Source: Arachnia sp. (GTDB lineage Bacteria > Actinomycetota > Actinomycetes > Propionibacteriales > Propionibacteriaceae). Taken from it: 24,000 nt of DNA. Within the stretch, counting starts at the first letter, position 1, and each line of letters begins with the position of its first letter. The notes below the pieces were generated by a model that was given only the letters and a program-made list of their open reading frames with translations, did no database searches and was not told the DNA's origin. The stretch covers positions 9,682 to 33,681 of the forward strand of contig JBDSRF010000195.1 of assembly GCA_039929445.1 (NCBI GenBank), written 5' to 3'. The position numbers and the translations under genes are program-made. Shown one piece after another: positions 3,129 to 10,258 of this stretch.

Positions 3129-4313
3129 TCATCCCACGGGGGTTTTCGTCTCGCGTCGTGTCAATCGTGCGCGCTGCACAGCCATCGGACCGAACCGCAT
3201 CACCACCTGATCCACGGCACGCTCCGCCTGCTCCCATCCGCAACGCGGCTCGTCCAGGGTCGGCTGCGTGTAGGTGTCGTCCTTCGACGCCAACTTCTCC
3301 ACCCGTACCCCCACCCGCCGGATCCGGGCCCGGGACAGGTGCAGCTTGTGCCACAACCGCATGGCCTCCGCGTGGATGTCCCCCGTCAGGTCCGTGGGCG
3401 CCTTCAGCGTGCCGGTGCGGGTGATCGTGGTGAAGTCAGAGAACCGCACGGACAGCGTCACCACCCTGCCCACCATGGACTGCGCACGCATCCGGGATGC
3501 TGTCCGCGCCGCCATCCGCAGGATCTCGGTGGCCACCACCTCCTCGTCGTCGGTGTCGCGCCCAAAGGTCTCCTGGGAGCCGATGCTCCGCTCGGCGGGC
3601 TCGCGCGCCAGCACGGACCGGTCGTCCTGCCCCCACGCCAGGTCGAACAGCAGCCCGCCCTGCCCCTCACCCAGTGCACGCTGCAGCGTGGCGCGGGGTG
3701 TGTTGGCGATGTCGCGGACCGTCATGAGCCCGAGCCGGCGCAACTTCTCGGCCGTGACCTCCCCCACCCCCCATATGGCGTCGACGGGCAGCGGATGCAG
3801 GAAGGAGATGACGTCGTCGGGGTGCACCACCTTCAGGCCGTCGGGCTTGGCTGCCTTGGATGCGAGTTTGGCGATGAATTTGCTGGGGCCGATGCCCACC
3901 GAGCAGGCGATGCCCTGCTCGTCCATCACCTGCGCCCGGACGTCCTCCGCGACGGCGGCGGCATCCCCGCCCAGCCTGCGCAGGGCGCTGGTGAGGTCGA
4001 TGAAGGCCTCGTCGATGGAGGCCATCTCCACCCGGTCGGTGATGGTGTCGAATACCTCCTCCACCGCAGTGGACACCTCCGCGTAGTGGTCGAAGTCCGG
4101 GTGCACCACCGCCACCTGCGGGCACAGCCGCCTGGCCCGGGTGGACGGCATGCCGGCCGTGATGCCGTAGACCCGGGCAGGGTAGTTGGCGGACAGCACC
4201 ACCCCCCGGGCAGAGCCGCCCACGAACATGGGGACATGTGCCAGCGAGGGTTCGCGGGCCATTTCCACGGACGCGTAGAACGCATCCATGTCCACGTGCA
4301 GGATCGTCTTCAT
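3129..4313 (-). CDS. dinB: DNA polymerase IV (Y-family, catalytic residues intact)
   Basis: Start trimmed to ATG at 4313-4311 ('MKTILHVDMDAFYASVE'), preceded by GGAAGGAG. Y-family motifs 'DMDAFYASVE', 'SIDEAFIDLT' and 'CSVGIGPSKFIAKLAS' are present. It lies 14 nt downstream of the dnaE2 stop on the same strand. Confidence 0.9.
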   Translation of the reverse strand: MKTILHVDMDAFYASVEMAREPSLAHVPMFVGGSARGVVLSANYPARVYGITAGMPSTRARRLCPQVAVVHPDFDHYAEVSTAVEEVFDTITDRVEMASIDEAFIDLTSALRRLGGDAAAVAEDVRAQVMDEQGIACSVGIGPSKFIAKLASKAAKPDGLKVVHPDDVISFLHPLPVDAIWGVGEVTAEKLRRLGLMTVRDIANTPRATLQRALGEGQGGLLFDLAWGQDDRSVLAREPAERSIGSQETFGRDTDDEEVVATEILRMAARTASRMRAQSMVGRVVTLSVRFSDFTTITRTGTLKAPTDLTGDIHAEAMRLWHKLHLSRARIRRVGVRVEKLASKDDTYTQPTLDEPRCGWEQAERAVDQVVMRFGPMAVQRARLTRRETKTPVG

Positions 4314-4327
4314 GGGGTGTCTCCTTC

Positions 4328-7300
4328 CTACCTTCCTGAGCTTCCGGGGCTGGAGTGCCACAGTTTCCGCGGCGCCTCCGCGGCGCCTGTCCCCGATGGT
4401 TTGATGTCGGCGTAGGGCGACTGCTCGAACCCACTGGCGTGCACGATCACCCGCCGTCGACCCATGCCGCCGGCGCGGGTGTGGTCCTGCGGGTCCGGGG
4501 GCGGCTCGAATCCCTCGGGCACGGGTTCCGCCGTCGTTGCCTCCGCCTCACCCTGGCGGTCGGCGGACCTGGCGTCGCGTCGCTCCTGCTCACCCTTGCT
4601 CCCCCCATCGTCGGGCGTCGTCCTGAGCTTGTCGAAGGGAATCCACTCACCGACCGGTCCGAAGCCGATGGGCTCGGCGTCGACGATCTCCCGCACCGCG
4701 GCCAGCGCCTCCTCGCCGGTGGCGCCCACATCCAGTGCCCCCCGCCACGCGTCGTGCAGCAGACCGAGATCCCAGGCCCCCGTGGCCCGGATGGACAGGC
4801 CACGCGGACCGGTGCGCCGGATGACACCGCGCACCATCAGCATCCAGCTGTTGAACACCGTCGACGCGTAACCGCCCTGCGCATCCTCGAAGAACGTGGC
4901 GTCGGTGGGGCCCGTGGAGTCGTCGAGCGTGAGGAACACCACGCGACGGCCCGAACGCACCGGCGGTGTCTGCGTGGCCACCTTCACCCCGCAGATGAAC
5001 ACCTCGGAGCGGTTGCGCTGCTGCATGAGGCGCTGCGAACTGGTGGCGCCGAAGGCCCGCAGGAATGGCAGGTAGCGCTCCATGATGTGCTGGCTGGCGT
5101 CCAGGCCCAGGATCTCCAGCTCGGAGCGCAGCCGCTGGTCGTCGTCCATCTCCGGCAGCCCCGTGGCCACCACGTCGGAGGTCTCGTCGCCGTCCTGGAA
5201 GTCGAACGCCCCCTGCACCGCCTGCCCCGTGGGGACGCGGGTCCTGCGGCTCTGGGCGCGGGCCAGCGTTCCCGGGTCCTCCGTGCCCTGGAGTGCCATG
5301 GGCCGGCGGCCACCGCTGCGGGACCGGGCGCGGTCGTCGTAGCGGCGCATGCGGTGCAGATCCGCCGACGCCAGCAGCAGGTCGCGGCGGGTCACCTGGT
5401 CGCGGCGGGCGACGGCTGCGTGGCGACCGATCCCGTAGAGCCGGTCGAAGGCGCCGGCCAGGACGAGCCGCTCCACCACGGGGTGCTCCACCGCGGCGCG
5501 TGACCAGAAGTCGCTGAGCGTCGCGTAGGGCTGACCGGCGACGATACGCCCGATCTCGGCCTCGCTCATGCCCTTCACGTCCGCCAGGGACAGCCGGATG
5601 CCCCACCCGGAGATGGTGGGCAGGCCGTTGACAGCCACCGGCAGTCCGGCCTGCGTCACATCGGTGATGGTGTCGGTTGCGGTGGGCTTCCCCACCCCCG
5701 CAACCTGCGGACTCCCCCCGCCCGGCGGTCCCGTGTCGGTGCAGTCCCCGGGGGTCCGCCACGCCGGCGGCAGGGCGGTGGCGTCCAGGTCCAGGGCCTC
5801 CTCGTCCCCGTCGATCCGCTCCACGTGGTAAGCGCCGTCGCTGTGGTTGACGTCCAGCCCCAACACCTGGATGCCCATGCGGCGGGCCTCCTCCAGCAGC
5901 AGCCGTTTGGGGTACATGCCCGGGTCGTGGGTGAGGATCCCGGAGATGAAGTGGGCCGGGTAGTGCCGCTTCAGCCACGCCGACTGGTAGGTGGGCAGCG
6001 CGAACGCGGCGGCGTGAGCCTTGCAGAACCCGAAGGACGCGAAGGCAACGAGGATGTGCCACAACTGCTCGATGACTGCCTCGGTGTACCCCCGTTCGCG
6101 GGCGCGCGGCCACAGCCACTGCCGGACCTCCTCCTGGCCCTCCTTGTCGCCCAGTGCGCGGCGCACCTCGTCGCCCTGGGCCAGGGAGCAGCCGGTGGCG
6201 ATGGAGATCAGCATGATGACCTGCTCGTGGAACACCACCACCCCGCCGGTCTGCTGGAGTGCCGGGATGAAGCTCGCGTGCAGGTACTCGGGTTTCCGCC
6301 AGCCCTGCCGGGCCTCCAGGAAGGGGGTCACCATGTCCGACTTCACGGGGCCGGGGCGGAACAGGGAGATGTCGATGATGATGTCGTGGAAGGTCTCGGG
6401 CCCGAACTTGCCCACCAGTTCCCGCTGCCCCGGCGACTCGATCTGGAAGCAGCCGAGCGTGGCGCGGTGGGCGATCATGTCGTAGGTGGCCGGGTCGTCG
6501 AACGGCGCCAGCGCGTCGATGTCGGGGGTGGGTCCCGGGGGCTGGGTGCGCCCGATCTCGGCCAGGGCGTGGGCCATCGACGACTGCATGCGGATACCCA
6601 GCACGTCCAGCTTCAGGAAGCCGAGATCCTCGACGTCGTCCTTGTCGAACTGGCTCATGGGGAACCCGCCATGGCTGGCCTCCACGGGGGTGCGCTGCCC
6701 CAGGGAGGAGTCGCTGAGCAGTACGCCGCAGGGGTGCAGCGCGATGTGGCGGGGCAGGCCGTCGAGGGATTCCACCAGGGTGAACAGCACCTCCAGCCGC
6801 TGCTCCCCCAGACCGGCGGCCCGCAGCTCCGGCAGGTCGCGGAGCGCCGCCTTCGCGTCCCGCGCCCGGACGTGCGGGAATGCCTTGGCCATGGCGTCCA
6901 CCTCAGCGGGCGGCAGGCTGAGGGCCGCACCCACGTCGCGGACGGCGTGGCGCACCCGGTAGGTCTCCAGCATGGCCACGCACGAGACGCGCTGGCCGCC
7001 GAAGGTCTCCAGGATCTTCTCGTAGATCTCGGTGCGGCGGTGGGACTCCACGTCCAGGTCGATGTCCGGCAGCGCCTGCCGCAGCGGGGAGAGGAACCTC
7101 TCCATGAGCAGGCCATGCGCCATGGGGTCGACGCCGGAGACGCCGAGCGCGTAGTTGACGAGGCTGCCCGCGCCGGAGCCGCGGGCGGCGCAGCGGATGC
7201 CGAGGTCGCGGATGAGCTGGACCACGTCGCCCACCGTCAGGAAGTAGGACTCGAACCCCAGCTTCCCGATGACGGCCAACTCGTCCTCGAGGCGGTCCGA

Positions 7301-8326
7301 GACGCCACGTCCCATCGTGGGGAACCGAGCAGCCAGACCGGCCTCGCAGCGGGCGCGGAGCACCCCCGGCGCCTGCGCGGTGGTGGTGCCGAGCGTCTCG
7401 AACTCCGGCAGGCGGATCTCTCCCAGCCCGATGTCGGCGACGGGGTCCAGGCGGCACTCCAGCGCCAACTCCCGGGTACGGCGGAGCAGCGCGTCGGGGT
7501 CCTCACCCGCCAGCAGCGCGGCCTCCTGCGCGGCGAAGGCCATGGCGGTGGCCGGCTTGAGGTGGCCCTCGGCGTTGCGGCGGTCAATGTTGCGCAGATC
7601 GAGTGGGACCAGGCGCCGGGTGGCGTCGAGGACGTCGATGGTGGCCGCCTGCTCCCTGCGCGCCATCCTCACCATGTTGGTGAGCACGGAGCGCACACCC
7701 GTCTCCGAGGCGAGCCGCAGGATGCCCGCAGCGTGGTGCGCGGAGGTGGCACCCCTGCCCCCGACGTGATGGTTGGTGGCCGCCAGCACCACCTGACCAC
7801 CCAACCCGTCGCGCCACGTGGCCAGCCGCCTGTGTGCCTCGTCGAAGCGGTTGTCTGCCAGCAGGTTGCCGACGTCGGAGTCGGCACCCAGCGTCACCAC
7901 CACGTCCCGGCCGGCGCAGTGCCGGACCACCAACTCCTGGGTGACCACAGGGTCCCCGCGCTCCCCGCTGAGGTGGGCGGCGGTGATGAGGGTGCACAGC
8001 GTGGCCCACCCGGCCCTCGAGGTGGCCGTCACCACCAGGCGCGGCAGGCGGAGGTCGCGCAGTTGCCCGCCCTTGGCCGCCGTCGGACGGCGAGTCTGTG
8101 ACCTGCCGTCACCGACGGCCAGATCCACCCCGACGATGGGTGCGATCCCCGCCTTCAGGCAGGCCTTGGCGAACCGCACCGCCCCGTACAGCCCGTTGCG
8201 GTCCGTCAGTGCCAGGGTGTCCATGCCGAAACCCGCCGCCGCGGCCACCAGTGCGCTGGGGTGGGAGGCGCCGTACTGGAAGGAGTACCCCGACGCCACC
8301 CGCAGGTGGCTGAACTGCTCCGTCAC
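4328..8326 (-). CDS. dnaE2: Error-prone DNA polymerase III alpha-type (DnaE2-like), unusually long at 1332 aa
   Basis: GTG start at 8326-8324 overlaps the upstream gene's stop (GTGA). Pol IIIalpha palm motifs are 'LPDIDLDVESHRR' and 'FLKLDVLGIRM'. Finger region is 'FGFCKAHAAAFALPTYQSAWLK'. HhH region is 'GIRLSLADVKGMSEAEIGRIV'. OB-fold region is 'VFICGVKVATQTPPVRSGRRVVFLTLDDSTG'. The C-terminus reads '...VIVHASGFEQSPYADIKP...PRKLWHSSPGSSGR'. Confidence 0.9.
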   Translation of the reverse strand: MTEQFSHLRVASGYSFQYGASHPSALVAAAAGFGMDTLALTDRNGLYGAVRFAKACLKAGIAPIVGVDLAVGDGRSQTRRPTAAKGGQLRDLRLPRLVVTATSRAGWATLCTLITAAHLSGERGDPVVTQELVVRHCAGRDVVVTLGADSDVGNLLADNRFDEAHRRLATWRDGLGGQVVLAATNHHVGGRGATSAHHAAGILRLASETGVRSVLTNMVRMARREQAATIDVLDATRRLVPLDLRNIDRRNAEGHLKPATAMAFAAQEAALLAGEDPDALLRRTRELALECRLDPVADIGLGEIRLPEFETLGTTTAQAPGVLRARCEAGLAARFPTMGRGVSDRLEDELAVIGKLGFESYFLTVGDVVQLIRDLGIRCAARGSGAGSLVNYALGVSGVDPMAHGLLMERFLSPLRQALPDIDLDVESHRRTEIYEKILETFGGQRVSCVAMLETYRVRHAVRDVGAALSLPPAEVDAMAKAFPHVRARDAKAALRDLPELRAAGLGEQRLEVLFTLVESLDGLPRHIALHPCGVLLSDSSLGQRTPVEASHGGFPMSQFDKDDVEDLGFLKLDVLGIRMQSSMAHALAEIGRTQPPGPTPDIDALAPFDDPATYDMIAHRATLGCFQIESPGQRELVGKFGPETFHDIIIDISLFRPGPVKSDMVTPFLEARQGWRKPEYLHASFIPALQQTGGVVVFHEQVIMLISIATGCSLAQGDEVRRALGDKEGQEEVRQWLWPRARERGYTEAVIEQLWHILVAFASFGFCKAHAAAFALPTYQSAWLKRHYPAHFISGILTHDPGMYPKRLLLEEARRMGIQVLGLDVNHSDGAYHVERIDGDEEALDLDATALPPAWRTPGDCTDTGPPGGGSPQVAGVGKPTATDTITDVTQAGLPVAVNGLPTISGWGIRLSLADVKGMSEAEIGRIVAGQPYATLSDFWSRAAVEHPVVERLVLAGAFDRLYGIGRHAAVARRDQVTRRDLLLASADLHRMRRYDDRARSRSGGRRPMALQGTEDPGTLARAQSRRTRVPTGQAVQGAFDFQDGDETSDVVATGLPEMDDDQRLRSELEILGLDASQHIMERYLPFLRAFGATSSQRLMQQRNRSEVFICGVKVATQTPPVRSGRRVVFLTLDDSTGPTDATFFEDAQGGYASTVFNSWMLMVRGVIRRTGPRGLSIRATGAWDLGLLHDAWRGALDVGATGEEALAAVREIVDAEPIGFGPVGEWIPFDKLRTTPDDGGSKGEQERRDARSADRQGEAEATTAEPVPEGFEPPPDPQDHTRAGGMGRRRVIVHASGFEQSPYADIKPSGTGAAEAPRKLWHSSPGSSGR

Positions 8327-8694
8327 GACACCACGCCCTCGAAACGCATCCGGCGGGTGACGTCGGTGACGAAACGCTCCAGGTCGCGCACCAGGTCGTC
8401 GGCCTCACGCTCGCCGACGATGGCCCGCTCCCCCGCGGCCACCACCTTCACCCGCATGGAGAGGTATCCGAAGAAGGCGGCCCATTCGGCCAGGTGGGGC
8501 GCCCGCCGCGCCAGCAGGTCCCAGACGTCATGGCGGCCGCGCACCCGCCCCGGCGTGCCGGCGATGACGGCCAGCGCCAGTTGCTCGGCGGCGCTGTGGG
8601 CTGCCACGTAGCGGTCGGCCGGGTGTTCGATGCAGCCGATGTCCGCCAGTTCCTGGGCATCCAGGGGGCGCATGGCCCGTGTGGTGTCGGCCAT
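8323..8694 (-). CDS. Small all-helical protein, HEPN-like (resembles the 'SAV_6107 family HEPN domain' annotation class)
   Basis: Only the last 123 aa of the 305-aa track ORF are kept, starting at ATG 8694-8692 ('MADTTRAMRPLDAQELADIG...'). The start shares one nt with the upstream stop (TGATG). The stop overlaps the dnaE2 GTG. Signature-like stretch: 'PADRYVAAHSAAEQLALAVIA...APHLAEWAAFF...READDLVRDLERFV'. Family assignment is from memory, not a search. Confidence 0.65.
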   Translation of the reverse strand: MADTTRAMRPLDAQELADIGCIEHPADRYVAAHSAAEQLALAVIAGTPGRVRGRHDVWDLLARRAPHLAEWAAFFGYLSMRVKVVAAGERAIVGEREADDLVRDLERFVTDVTRRMRFEGVVS

Positions 8695-9023
8695 CAGTCG
8701 CACACCGCCTGGAGCACCCAGTCGTCGCGCCCCACGGAGCGAGCCAGTTCGTAGACGCCGCGCTGCATGCCGTTGCCGGCCTCGACGCGCCACACCTCCA
8801 TCTCCTCCAGCAGGTCCGCCGCAGGGGCCGGCGTGGCCCCGGTGGCCGTGCCGGTGGTGGCCGCATCCCCGCGGGCCGCTGAGACCCGGGGCGACTCCCA
8901 CCATGCCGTCGACCTGCTCCACCGTCCCTGGACCTCCTTGACCAGCAGCAACCGGTTGCGCCAGATGAACTGCTGGGGACGGTCGCTGAACAGGACGCAA
9001 ATGGGTTCGTCGTAACTGCGCAT
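8694..9023 (-). CDS. Small protein resembling the DUF6504 family
   Basis: Start chosen at ATG 9023-9021 ('MRSYDEPICVLFSDRPQQFIWRNRLLLVKEVQGRWSRSTAWW...EMEVWRVEAGNG...GVYELAR...WVLQAVCD'), with GGAAGG 4 nt upstream. An alternative in-frame ATG exists at 9098. The motifs W-R-x-R, 'WW', 'VWRVEA' and 'GVYEL' match my memory of DUF6504. Confidence 0.6.
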   Translation of the reverse strand: MRSYDEPICVLFSDRPQQFIWRNRLLLVKEVQGRWSRSTAWWESPRVSAARGDAATTGTATGATPAPAADLLEEMEVWRVEAGNGMQRGVYELARSVGRDDWVLQAVCD

Positions 9024-9080
9024 GGGGGCCTTCCGGGTTCGTTGCCATTCGTGAGAACTGCGTTCGACCCAACGCTCGTT

Positions 9081-9101
9081 CCGATGCTCCAGGAGCATCG
9101 G
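9081..9101. promoter_or_regulatory. Perfect 21-bp palindrome CCGATGCTCC-A-GGAGCATCGG (candidate operator)
   Basis: Read directly: the 10-bp arms are exact reverse complements around a single central A. It lies 58-78 nt upstream of the DUF6504-like start. A 1-nt spacer is too short for an RNA loop, so a dimeric DNA-binding site is more likely. Confidence 0.4.
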
Positions 9102-9120
9102 GACGAAGTCCCCGGAGGAG

Positions 9121-9167
9121 GCTTTGGGCCCCGGCGCAGGGGTCGAGGCCACGCCGGGGCCCAAAGC
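9121..9167. other. Perfect inverted repeat: 16-bp GC-rich stem with 15-nt loop, in the leader or intergenic region
   Basis: GCTTTGGGCCCCGGCG (9121-9136) and CGCCGGGGCCCAAAGC (9152-9167) are exact reverse complements, separated by CAGGGGTCGAGGCCA. It sits between the LexA box and candidate promoter and the first gene of the cassette. No T-tract follows on either strand. Confidence 0.6.
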
Positions 9168-9216
9168 GGCCCTCCGTGCATCGGCGGTGGTTCGAAGCCT
9201 CTTCCCAGGGCCTCAT

Positions 9217-9232
9217 TCGAACAACCGTTCGA
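9217..9232. promoter_or_regulatory. LexA (SOS) box, TCGAAC-AACC-GTTCGA
   Basis: Exact match to the actinobacterial/mycobacterial LexA consensus TCGAAC-N4-GTTCGA. It lies in the 332-bp divergent region upstream of the DUF6504/HEPN/dnaE2/dinB cassette. Confidence 0.75.
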
Positions 9233-9242
9233 TACGACAACC

Positions 9243-9355: not shown

Positions 9356-10258
9356 ATGAAGCGTCATCCTCGTGTCCTCGCAGCGGCGCTTGCCGTCGCA
9401 CTCGTCTCGGCGCTCTGGCCGGTGTCCACTGCAGCCGCTGACGTCGCGCCCGTCAAGCGTGTCTCCTGCCCCAGCGTGGCCGAGATCAACAAGTTCCGCC
9501 CAGCCGCTTCCACTGAACCCCTCCTGGCGAGCCTCGAGGCAACTCCCACCACCTGCAGCTACGGGGTAAAGGGAATCCCCGACATCCCTACGGGGTTGAC
9601 GTTCGGGTTCTCCAGCTCGTTCTCGACTCCCAAGGAGTACGAGGACTACCTGCGGGCGTCCTACGAACGATATGATCTGGGCTACCAATTCACGCCGGAA
9701 CCGCTTCCGGCGCTCGGCAGCGGGGCCTTCGCCTGGGCCGATGCCAGCATCTTCACCAGTATCAACTGGCAGTTCTCCCCCGGAGTGTTGGCCAACATGG
9801 ACAGCAGACTCACGTGGCTGACCAATGCGAAAGTGCCGGTGGCCAAGTTGTTCCGACCGATGATGGAGGTCTACACCATCCCCGGTGAACGCACCGTCAA
9901 TGGCCGCCAGTGGCGCACCACCTGCGAAAACTACTCCGCCACCGCACGATGCCGCACCGACATCTTCGCCACGGTGATCAAGAAGACTCCGACGGGGTTC
10001 CAGAGCGTCAAGGGCTGGGCCTTCAACTCCCTGACCTACCGCTGGACAGACCGTGCGCTGTGGAAGAACAACCCACTCGGCAACACCGGCGCATGGACCA
10101 GTGCCGAGAACCGTCAGTGGCGCACCGAGTGCGACACGCCCACAACCGGTCGGGGTGCCTGCCGCAGCTACATCCTGACGACAGTCATCGACCACAAGGG
10201 CGGCAAGTACAGCCAGGACAACCTCTGGGTGTTCAACAACCAGGTCCTGTTCAACTGA
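9356..10258 (+). CDS. Secreted hypothetical protein with two C-terminal Cys-pair repeats
   Basis: AGGAG lies 6 nt upstream of the ATG. The signal peptide is 'MKRHPRVLAAALAVALVSALWPVSTAAA'. Two internal repeats are 'RQWRTTC..8..CRTDIFATVI..12..WAFNSLTY' (aa 184-228) and 'RQWRTECD..8..CRSYILTTVI..12..WVFNNQVLF' (aa 253-299). Confidence 0.75.
   Translation: MKRHPRVLAAALAVALVSALWPVSTAAADVAPVKRVSCPSVAEINKFRPAASTEPLLASLEATPTTCSYGVKGIPDIPTGLTFGFSSSFSTPKEYEDYLRASYERYDLGYQFTPEPLPALGSGAFAWADASIFTSINWQFSPGVLANMDSRLTWLTNAKVPVAKLFRPMMEVYTIPGERTVNGRQWRTTCENYSATARCRTDIFATVIKKTPTGFQSVKGWAFNSLTYRWTDRALWKNNPLGNTGAWTSAENRQWRTECDTPTTGRGACRSYILTTVIDHKGGKYSQDNLWVFNNQVLFN

Follow-up and report, generated by a model that had tools for sequence, protein, structure and literature searches.

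A small HEPN-family gene is a conserved member of the ImuB-C, DnaE2 and DinB cassette of Actinobacteria, behind predicted LexA boxes

In the mycobacterial ImuA'-ImuB-DnaE2 mutasome, a damage-induced error-prone DnaE2 polymerase acts with non-catalytic accessory proteins, the DnaE2-binding element being the C-terminal part of ImuB (ImuB-C). The ImuB-C domain was defined in 2013 as a conserved, beta-rich C-terminal region of ImuB that also exists as a free protein beside DinB or DnaE2 (PMC3765255), and Venclovas and colleagues have described ImuA-less variants with a standalone ImuB-C (PMC6511836). In 2026, an Actinobacteria-only type of putative mutasome, DnaE2B-PolY-ImuBC-RecA, was reported, with Tessaracoccus lapidicaptus as its example (NAR 2026, PMC12926913). 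Here, we analyzed 24,000 nucleotides (nt) of the genome of an Arachnia sp. (GenBank assembly GCA_039929445.1, contig JBDSRF010000195.1, positions 9,682 to 33,681 of the forward strand), hereafter called the window. It holds an operon of this already known type plus one extra gene, which codes for a 123-amino-acid (aa) protein of the HEPN_SAV_6107 family and is found in the same cassette in most families of the actinobacterial class. The operon consists of four genes on the minus strand behind a perfect LexA box, as listed below in the order of transcription.

9217..9232, no strand assigned: LexA (SOS) box, a perfect palindrome TCGAAC-N4-GTTCGA, about 194 nt upstream of the first start codon
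9024..9216, minus strand: untranslated leader from the LexA box to the ImuB-C start codon, from direct reading of the sequence
8694..9023, minus strand: standalone ImuB-C (DUF6504), 109 aa, ATG start, PF20114 match
8323..8694, minus strand: HEPN_SAV_6107 family gene, 123 aa, ATG start, PF18726 match
4328..8326, minus strand: error-prone DNA polymerase DnaE2, 1332 aa, GTG start, NF004225 match with E 4e-188
3129..4313, minus strand: DNA polymerase IV (DinB), full-length, IMS (E 3e-47) and IMS_C matches, Pol IV NCBIfam models with E 1e-107

The LexA box is the sole zero-mismatch match within the 24-kb window. At the junction of the two small open reading frames (ORFs), TGATG, the HEPN ATG and the DUF6504 stop codon have one base in common, and at the next junction, GTGA, the HEPN stop overlaps the dnaE2 GTG; the dinB ATG lies 14 nt past the dnaE2 stop and is preceded by the ribosome-binding site GGAAGGAG. 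An earlier note on this DNA had placed both small proteins at the head of a translationally coupled polymerase operon, and the two overlaps bear this out; its coordinates and sequences for both ORFs were right, and the peptides that it quoted are present in the DUF6504 ORF. Both ORFs are thus the first two cistrons of a translationally coupled operon preceded by a LexA box. They are also real genes under purifying selection. In comparisons with close relatives at a synonymous divergence of 0.3-0.9, the ratio of nonsynonymous to synonymous substitution rates (dN/dS) was 0.09-0.13 for DUF6504 and 0.15-0.17 for the HEPN ORF, next to 0.10-0.12 for DnaE2 and 0.07-0.11 for DinB; the range of 0.09-0.17 for the small ORFs is far from the value near 1 that the earlier note had named as the sign of frames lacking coding conservation.

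The genome (3.4 Mb, 99.7% complete) carries a single copy of each small gene, and its closest named relative is Tessaracoccus antarcticus. The locus shares with the published T. lapidicaptus system the genus-level lineage, the order ImuB-C, DnaE2 and an apparently active DinB, and an upstream LexA box. The genome has two IMS (Y-family) matches, both strong and DinB-like. It differs in the HEPN gene, which the window and most actinobacterial families add between ImuB-C and DnaE2 and which T. lapidicaptus has lost. The departure from the mycobacterial mutasome is wider: in the window, ImuB-C is a free 109-aa protein, neither an ImuA' nor an inactive Y-family core was found, an apparently active DinB is co-encoded, and the HEPN gene fills the slot between accessory and polymerase genes.

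The 109-aa protein is indeed DUF6504-like, as the earlier note had stated, with a PF20114 match of 47.4 bits (cut-off 24.2; E 2.5e-12), but it had also been called uncharacterised, and this has to be withdrawn: by homology and published modelling, it is the standalone C-terminal beta-barrel of ImuB, a known module and part of a published mutasome type. When a lenient IMS search for an actinobacterial ImuB in two genomes found none, the ImuB of a Rhizobium plasmid imuA-imuB-dnaE2 cassette was used as a genuine ImuB. It matches PF20114 at aa 426-499 of 503 (E 3.2e-4; 21.4 bits, slightly below the cut-off), this being its third Pfam match, behind its two polymerase domains. The T. lapidicaptus orthologue of the window protein is 67% identical to it and is encoded directly upstream of DnaE2 and PolY; the accessions in the published tetramer model run consecutively, matching the ImuB-C/DnaE2/PolY gene order of that species (PMC12926913). 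In an alignment of 44 DUF6504 homologues, the C-terminal tryptophan (W102) and R79 are invariant and R24 is kept in at least 90%, and such a C-terminal Trp and conserved Arg residues are the published hallmarks of ImuB-C. The predicted model is all-beta, with a predicted local distance difference test score (pLDDT) of 84 and a disordered Ala/Thr/Gly insert at about aa 45-73. It gave no fold match in the PDB, and the 2026 paper likewise reports none for ImuB-C (PMC12926913). Binding of ImuB-C to the PHP domain of DnaE2 is backed by published multimer modelling of the T. lapidicaptus orthologue (PMC12926913), and the job of the window protein is presumably to dock DnaE2 in mutasomes without ImuA and ImuB.

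The identification of the second, helical protein as an SAV_6107-type HEPN also held, its match to PF18726 reaching 70.3 bits (cut-off 27.2; E 2.2e-19) over profile positions 5-97 of 98. A longer candidate, the 305-aa ORF at 8323-9240, was rejected as a spurious high-GC extension of the HEPN frame, the family match being confined to its last 120 residues. The predicted model of the 123-aa protein is a helical bundle (pLDDT 89; predicted template modelling score 0.83) with helices at aa 13-20, 25-46, 57-64, 66-86, and 95-122. In a Foldseek search, the top template modelling (TM) scores all belonged to HEPN domains, namely 1wol (ST0689; 0.60), 3o10 (sacsin HEPN; 0.60), and 1ylm (YutE; 0.55), none of them significant. 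The structure and profile searches that the earlier note had called for split: both small proteins match their family profiles above threshold, whereas neither model has a significant Foldseek match in the PDB. Searching PDB sequences with the HEPN profile returned chance matches only, the NCBIfam models matched neither the DUF6504 nor the HEPN protein, nor canonical members of the HEPN family, and no PADLOC defence model matched. Natural fusions of HEPN to DUF6504 or other domains were also sought, and the ten longest representatives carry the HEPN domain alone. We consider the assignment to the HEPN fold plausible but not proven.

The extra gene is widespread. PF18726 was found in 197 of 251 sampled genomes of the class and in 110 of 125 genera, with rare exceptions once per genome, and PF20114 in 133 of the 251; related genomes in these and the following counts are not independent observations. 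Genomes with both families have DUF6504 directly in front of HEPN, in the same orientation, with the exception of one large-genome family in which the genes are apart, and some lineages carry DUF6504 or HEPN alone. Among 24 loci, one per family, 23 have the order DUF6504-HEPN-DnaE2-[methyltransferase]-DinB-DUF3040; TgpA is encoded on the other strand, and the region, between metF and the MoxR/DUF58/TgpA/mraZ genes, is conserved. Eighty further named loci, picked by similarity to the window HEPN protein and hence over-representing Propionibacteriales, comprised 40 with DUF6504-HEPN-DnaE2, 8 with DUF6504-HEPN and no DnaE2, and 32 in which HEPN comes first. The last group was made up of HEPN-[methyltransferase]-DinB (17), HEPN-DnaE2 (2), HEPN-methyltransferase/DUF3040 (7), and HEPN alone or truncated (6). 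The distance from the DUF6504 stop to the first aligned HEPN residue has a median of 52 nt, so the tight coupling of the two genes is general. The ImuB-C-HEPN-DnaE2-[methyltransferase]-DinB cassette is therefore conserved across the actinobacterial class.

LexA boxes, predicted from sequence within 450 nt upstream of the first cassette gene, were present in 103 of 113 loci, 82 of them perfect and 21 with one mismatch; a perfect 12-base match is expected by chance in 480 nt at about 3e-5. Among these are loci in which HEPN is the first or only cassette gene, and loci that have lost the polymerase genes. Among shrunken cassettes, a HEPN-DinB pair behind the LexA box is the commonest remnant, and all five HEPN-only genomes that were examined retain DnaE2 and Y-family polymerases elsewhere in the genome. 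The HEPN gene is accordingly a predicted core gene of the SOS response, and of all cassette members it is the one that persists most.

Several other features of these loci were recorded. In about half of the cassettes (e.g., L053:12286-13050), though not in the window, dnaE2 and dinB are separated by an S-adenosylmethionine-dependent methyltransferase gene, which persists beside HEPN where the polymerases have been lost; the tRNA methyltransferase CmoM is its best NCBIfam similarity, far below the cut-off. The cassette ends with a DUF3040 gene (L053:14561-14989), which is reversed in Tessaracoccus loci (L094:13122-13517). It matches the SCO2097 family morphological protein model NF058603 above its cut-off, and this match connects the locus with the SCO2097-SCO2099 region of Streptomyces, next to the division cluster. 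One locus (G063:C1:1093233-1098835, partly L078) has an ImuB-like ORF with a weak IMS match, then DnaE2, and then HEPN-DUF3040, so that HEPN stands downstream of an imuB-dnaE2 pair and not upstream of dnaE2. In another (L160:5358-5782), two tandem DUF6504 matches precede HEPN, representing a duplication or a split gene.

Conservation within the HEPN family was counted in 149 representatives, drawn from the 1149 clusters that the family forms at 50% identity. Three segments of the window protein stand out.

8596..8613, minus strand: RYVAAH, R28-x4-H33 (aa 28-33), at the start of the first long helix, a family signature by the conservation counts
8470..8487, minus strand: EWAAFF (aa 70-75), invariant core of the middle helix (E70 in 143/149, W71 in 148/149, F75 in 147/149)
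8386..8409, minus strand: READDLVR (aa 96-103), start of the last helix and the canonical HEPN motif position, with no His

The earlier note had located RYVAAH correctly, within a helix that is predicted to span aa 25-46, and had asked about the conservation of its two residues; R28 is R in 145 of 149 representatives (K in 3) and H33 is retained in 139 (with Y in 7 others and Q in 3), and thus the pair is a family-wide trait and no quirk of the window protein. It is not the only R-x4-H pattern, as had been claimed, since RVRGRH at aa 50-55 fits as well, although this one lies in a variable loop between helices and its H55 is not conserved. The absence of the canonical Rx4-6H motif from the last core helix was stated correctly: R96 is present, while positions +5 to +7 are L, V, and R, and the whole family reads R-x6-R at this site. 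The 2013 survey of HEPN domains had already tabulated SAV_6107, in its HEPN-M group, as 'No' for the canonical motif (PMC3710099). At the start of the last helix, conservation is high (R96 in 140, D99 in 147, D100 in 143, and R103 in 142 of the 149), and W58, P66, E70, W71, and F75 are near-invariant too. The full signature set, R28, H33, R38, W58, P66, E67, E70, W71, F75, R82, G88, R96, D99, D100, R103, and F108, is mostly present in the window protein; the window and its Tessaracoccus relatives have Q for R38, V for R82, and H for E67. The domain is basic, with a median isoelectric point of 9.9 and an Arg-rich loop behind helix 1. In the bundle topology, the starts of helix 1 and of the last helix lie at the same end, so R28 and H33 should adjoin R96, D99, D100, and R103. 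These best-conserved motifs of the family may form an alternative active or binding site.

Two features of this residue set bear on what such a site might do. About 7% of the representatives, and two close relatives as well, have Y, Q, or F in place of H33, and its replacement in apparently intact orthologues favours binding over an acid-base role. Moreover, whether DUF6504 accompanies the gene (n = 68 loci) or not (n = 41), conservation falls on the same residues, so the conserved surface is not a dedicated interface for ImuB-C or DnaE2. The proposal of a non-catalytic HEPN scaffold consequently stands in its first half, the non-catalytic state being the likelier one; a polymerase scaffold is too narrow a description, because the residues are conserved regardless of ImuB-C and DnaE2 and the gene persists under a LexA box without polymerase genes.

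About one-third of the family members (representatives P0168-P0316) carry, past the last helix, a positionally conserved C-terminal tail, LG[LV]-P-H-Q-P-x-L-P, which resembles beta-clamp-binding hexapeptides; Q-x-x-[LIVM] occurs in 47 of the 149 representatives as against 12.9 in shuffles. The window protein ends before this tail.

Within the genus Tessaracoccus, the HEPN gene has diverged and has repeatedly been lost. Its copies score only about 65-70 bits, compared with about 120 bits for canonical PF18726 members, and they are without the C-terminal tail of many other members. The window copy appears to be a diverged member of the family, still constrained and partly degenerate. The DUF6504-DnaE2-DinB operon is present in 12 of the 24 genomes of the genus; among these 12, one of which is only 60% complete, HEPN is absent from 5 and split by a frameshift in 1. 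In a DnaE2 tree, HEPN-less T. lapidicaptus groups (support 100/100) with one HEPN-bearing genome and the frameshifted one, and all outgroups carry HEPN, which together imply that the gene was lost at least twice. The polymerase operon is intact after these at least two independent losses and is thus, in Tessaracoccus at least, maintained without HEPN. The published T. lapidicaptus system shows no HEPN component because HEPN was lost in that lineage. In the frameshifted gene (L049:10320-10690, genome G003, whose DUF6504 protein P0154 is named Tessaracoccus flavus), the first approximately 60 residues and the part containing EWAGFF...RDAADLVRD lie in different frames, the break reflecting either an incipient pseudogene or an error in sequencing.

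DnaE2 of the operon is the second C-family polymerase of the genome, alongside one DnaE1, and is 93% identical to T. antarcticus DnaE2. Its 1332 aa (4328-8326, minus strand) compare with about 1110-1280 aa in relatives, and tblastn alignments to HEPN-less relatives break at about residues 840-905, pointing to a lineage-specific insertion. A proteobacterial ImuA query of the genome, run without a positive control, found nothing. At the C-terminus of DinB, there is a 'VDQVVMRFGPMAV'-type stretch, RecA-NT-like by eye and unscored, when set against the motif described for Y-family polymerases proposed to bind RecA (PMC6511836); in the tail (window 3129-3300, minus strand), a QPTLDE stretch is followed by ERAVDQVVMRFGPMAVQRA, which resembles that motif. 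Upstream and divergent, a 300-aa ORF (window 9356-10258, plus strand) has a signal-peptide-like N-terminus and no Pfam or NCBIfam match.

A HEPN protein coupled to an error-prone polymerase had been noted as lacking an explained function, and this agrees with the searchable literature, in which no paper, including the 2013 ImuB-C paper (PMC3765255) and the 2019 and 2026 polymerase surveys, combines HEPN with DnaE2; in the text of PMC12926913 and in the supplements examined, the HEPN gene is not mentioned. An experimental lead comes from Corynebacterium glutamicum, where cg2381, a gene with no assigned function beside mraZ, has experimental support as a member of the LexA regulon and is strongly induced by ciprofloxacin (PMC5055667). 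Its position fits the expected HEPN gene order, and it is a candidate member of the HEPN family. Several known proteins invite comparison. The HepT/MntA-type toxins and DUF86 proteins (7ae8, 1ylm), which the 2013 survey places with SAV_6107 in the HEPN-M group (PMC3710099), are likewise small helical bundles of similar size with an Arg at the start of the last helix; the window protein, in contrast, has no canonical His and no partner nucleotidyltransferase, carries a conserved R-x4-H on helix 1, and is encoded by a core chromosomal gene, not by a mobile pair. Inactive regulatory HEPN domains (MtlR, Swt1, and the C-terminal domains of nucleotidyltransferases) have also lost the canonical Rx4-6H and are presumed to bind and not to cleave, but they have other partners and contexts, and none is known in an SOS regulon or a polymerase operon. 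UmuD' and YolD/YqjX are, similarly, small damage-induced proteins encoded directly upstream of an error-prone polymerase gene; they are beta-structured and SH3-like, with a known or modelled binding mode, whereas the window protein is all-helical.

Taking these observations together, we propose that HEPN_SAV_6107 is a damage-induced, probably non-catalytic factor that binds nucleic acid or a universal partner and modulates translesion synthesis by DinB and DnaE2 without being an obligatory subunit, and we put the probability of this at roughly 0.6. By homology and published modelling, ImuB-C would dock DnaE2, with DinB and RecA completing the complex. HEPN, induced on DNA damage, would attach either to nucleic acid or to a partner that every actinobacterium has, the beta clamp, RecA, and DinB being candidates, and would thereby modulate translesion synthesis. 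The following points weigh against this proposal: (i) the link between HEPN and the polymerases is drawn from gene order, coupling, and the shared LexA box, and the LexA boxes are themselves predictions; (ii) the gene is also retained at loci from which neighbouring polymerase genes are missing, as would suit a role outside translesion synthesis; (iii) the fold assignment is structurally weak, the Foldseek search of the HEPN model against the PDB having given no match at E <= 0.001; (iv) the clustering of R28/H33 with R96-R103 follows from helix topology only; and (v) the many invariant charged residues, the R...H pair included, could equally form an alternative RNase site.

A bolder claim, which we hold only tentatively and at less than even odds, is that HEPN_SAV_6107 has been overlooked as a near-universal part of the actinobacterial SOS regulon and acts directly in translesion synthesis, as a missing component of mutasomes without ImuA and ImuB. 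In one version of such a direct role, HEPN would serve as an adaptor, recruiting ImuB-C/DnaE2 and DinB to the replication fork, and the clamp-motif-like tail of about one-third of the family fits this; in another, the relocated Arg/His site would act on nucleic acid at stalled forks.

Point (v) leads to an alternative that we regard as unlikely, although worth stating in full, namely that HEPN is an active, non-canonical, damage-induced ribonuclease with a catalytic Arg/His pair that was relocated to helix 1 and acts together with R96/R103, cutting RNA, for example to slow translation during the SOS response. The near-invariance of R28, H33, R96, D99, D100, and R103 across 149 diverse representatives, the basic character of the protein, and the presence of HEPN RNase toxins among the best fold matches would all suit an enzyme of this kind, and, according to the 2013 survey, there are families in which the canonical His may be substituted by one at another site (PMC3710099). 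The same survey, however, classes the family as being without the motif, and a catalytic His would not usually vary as H33 does, which is exchanged in about 7% of the representatives and also in two close relatives. Loci in which the gene stands alone show no evident antitoxin or inhibitor partner, and PADLOC gave no match. Slightly less probable still is that HEPN, though an SOS gene, has a task apart from the polymerases, such as cell-cycle or envelope control, and adjoins them only because the region beside the division cluster is syntenic across actinobacteria. In favour of this, the gene persists with its LexA box as HEPN-methyltransferase-DUF3040 or alone, keeps its conserved residues independently of ImuB-C and DnaE2, sits in a conserved neighbourhood (SCO2097-family protein, TgpA, MoxR, MraZ), and is dispensable for the polymerase operon in Tessaracoccus. 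Synteny by itself hardly explains why, in most families, HEPN is placed between ImuB-C and DnaE2 so closely that its codons overlap theirs or nearly abut them; moreover, the shrunken cassette is most often HEPN-DinB behind the same box, and five of five HEPN-only genomes examined keep DnaE2 and Y-family polymerases elsewhere. Finally, a reading of DUF6504 and HEPN as the two partners of a toxin-antitoxin or anti-phage defence system, upstream of dnaE2 by chance, is close to excluded, for although many HEPN proteins are toxins encoded beside a small partner gene (PMC3710099), this HEPN gene occurs in single copy and in synteny, its distribution is nearly universal and not patchy, the cassette has no nucleotidyltransferase or antitoxin partner, DUF6504 and HEPN each occur without the other in whole lineages, no PADLOC model matches, and DUF6504 is homologous to the C-terminal domain of ImuB.

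What is new here is the spread of the HEPN gene, the conservation of the cassette, and its LexA boxes, an association that goes unmentioned in the HEPN and mutasome literature examined; the idea of DUF6504 as an unknown domain is corrected at the same time. Tessaracoccus offers a natural comparison with and without HEPN inside a single genus. DnaE2 mutasomes drive damage-induced mutation, and hence drug resistance, in actinobacteria, and their composition outside mycobacteria has been mapped only recently. In a cassette that is predicted to be under LexA control, it is the small HEPN gene, present in most actinobacterial genera, that outlasts both DnaE2 and ImuB-C.

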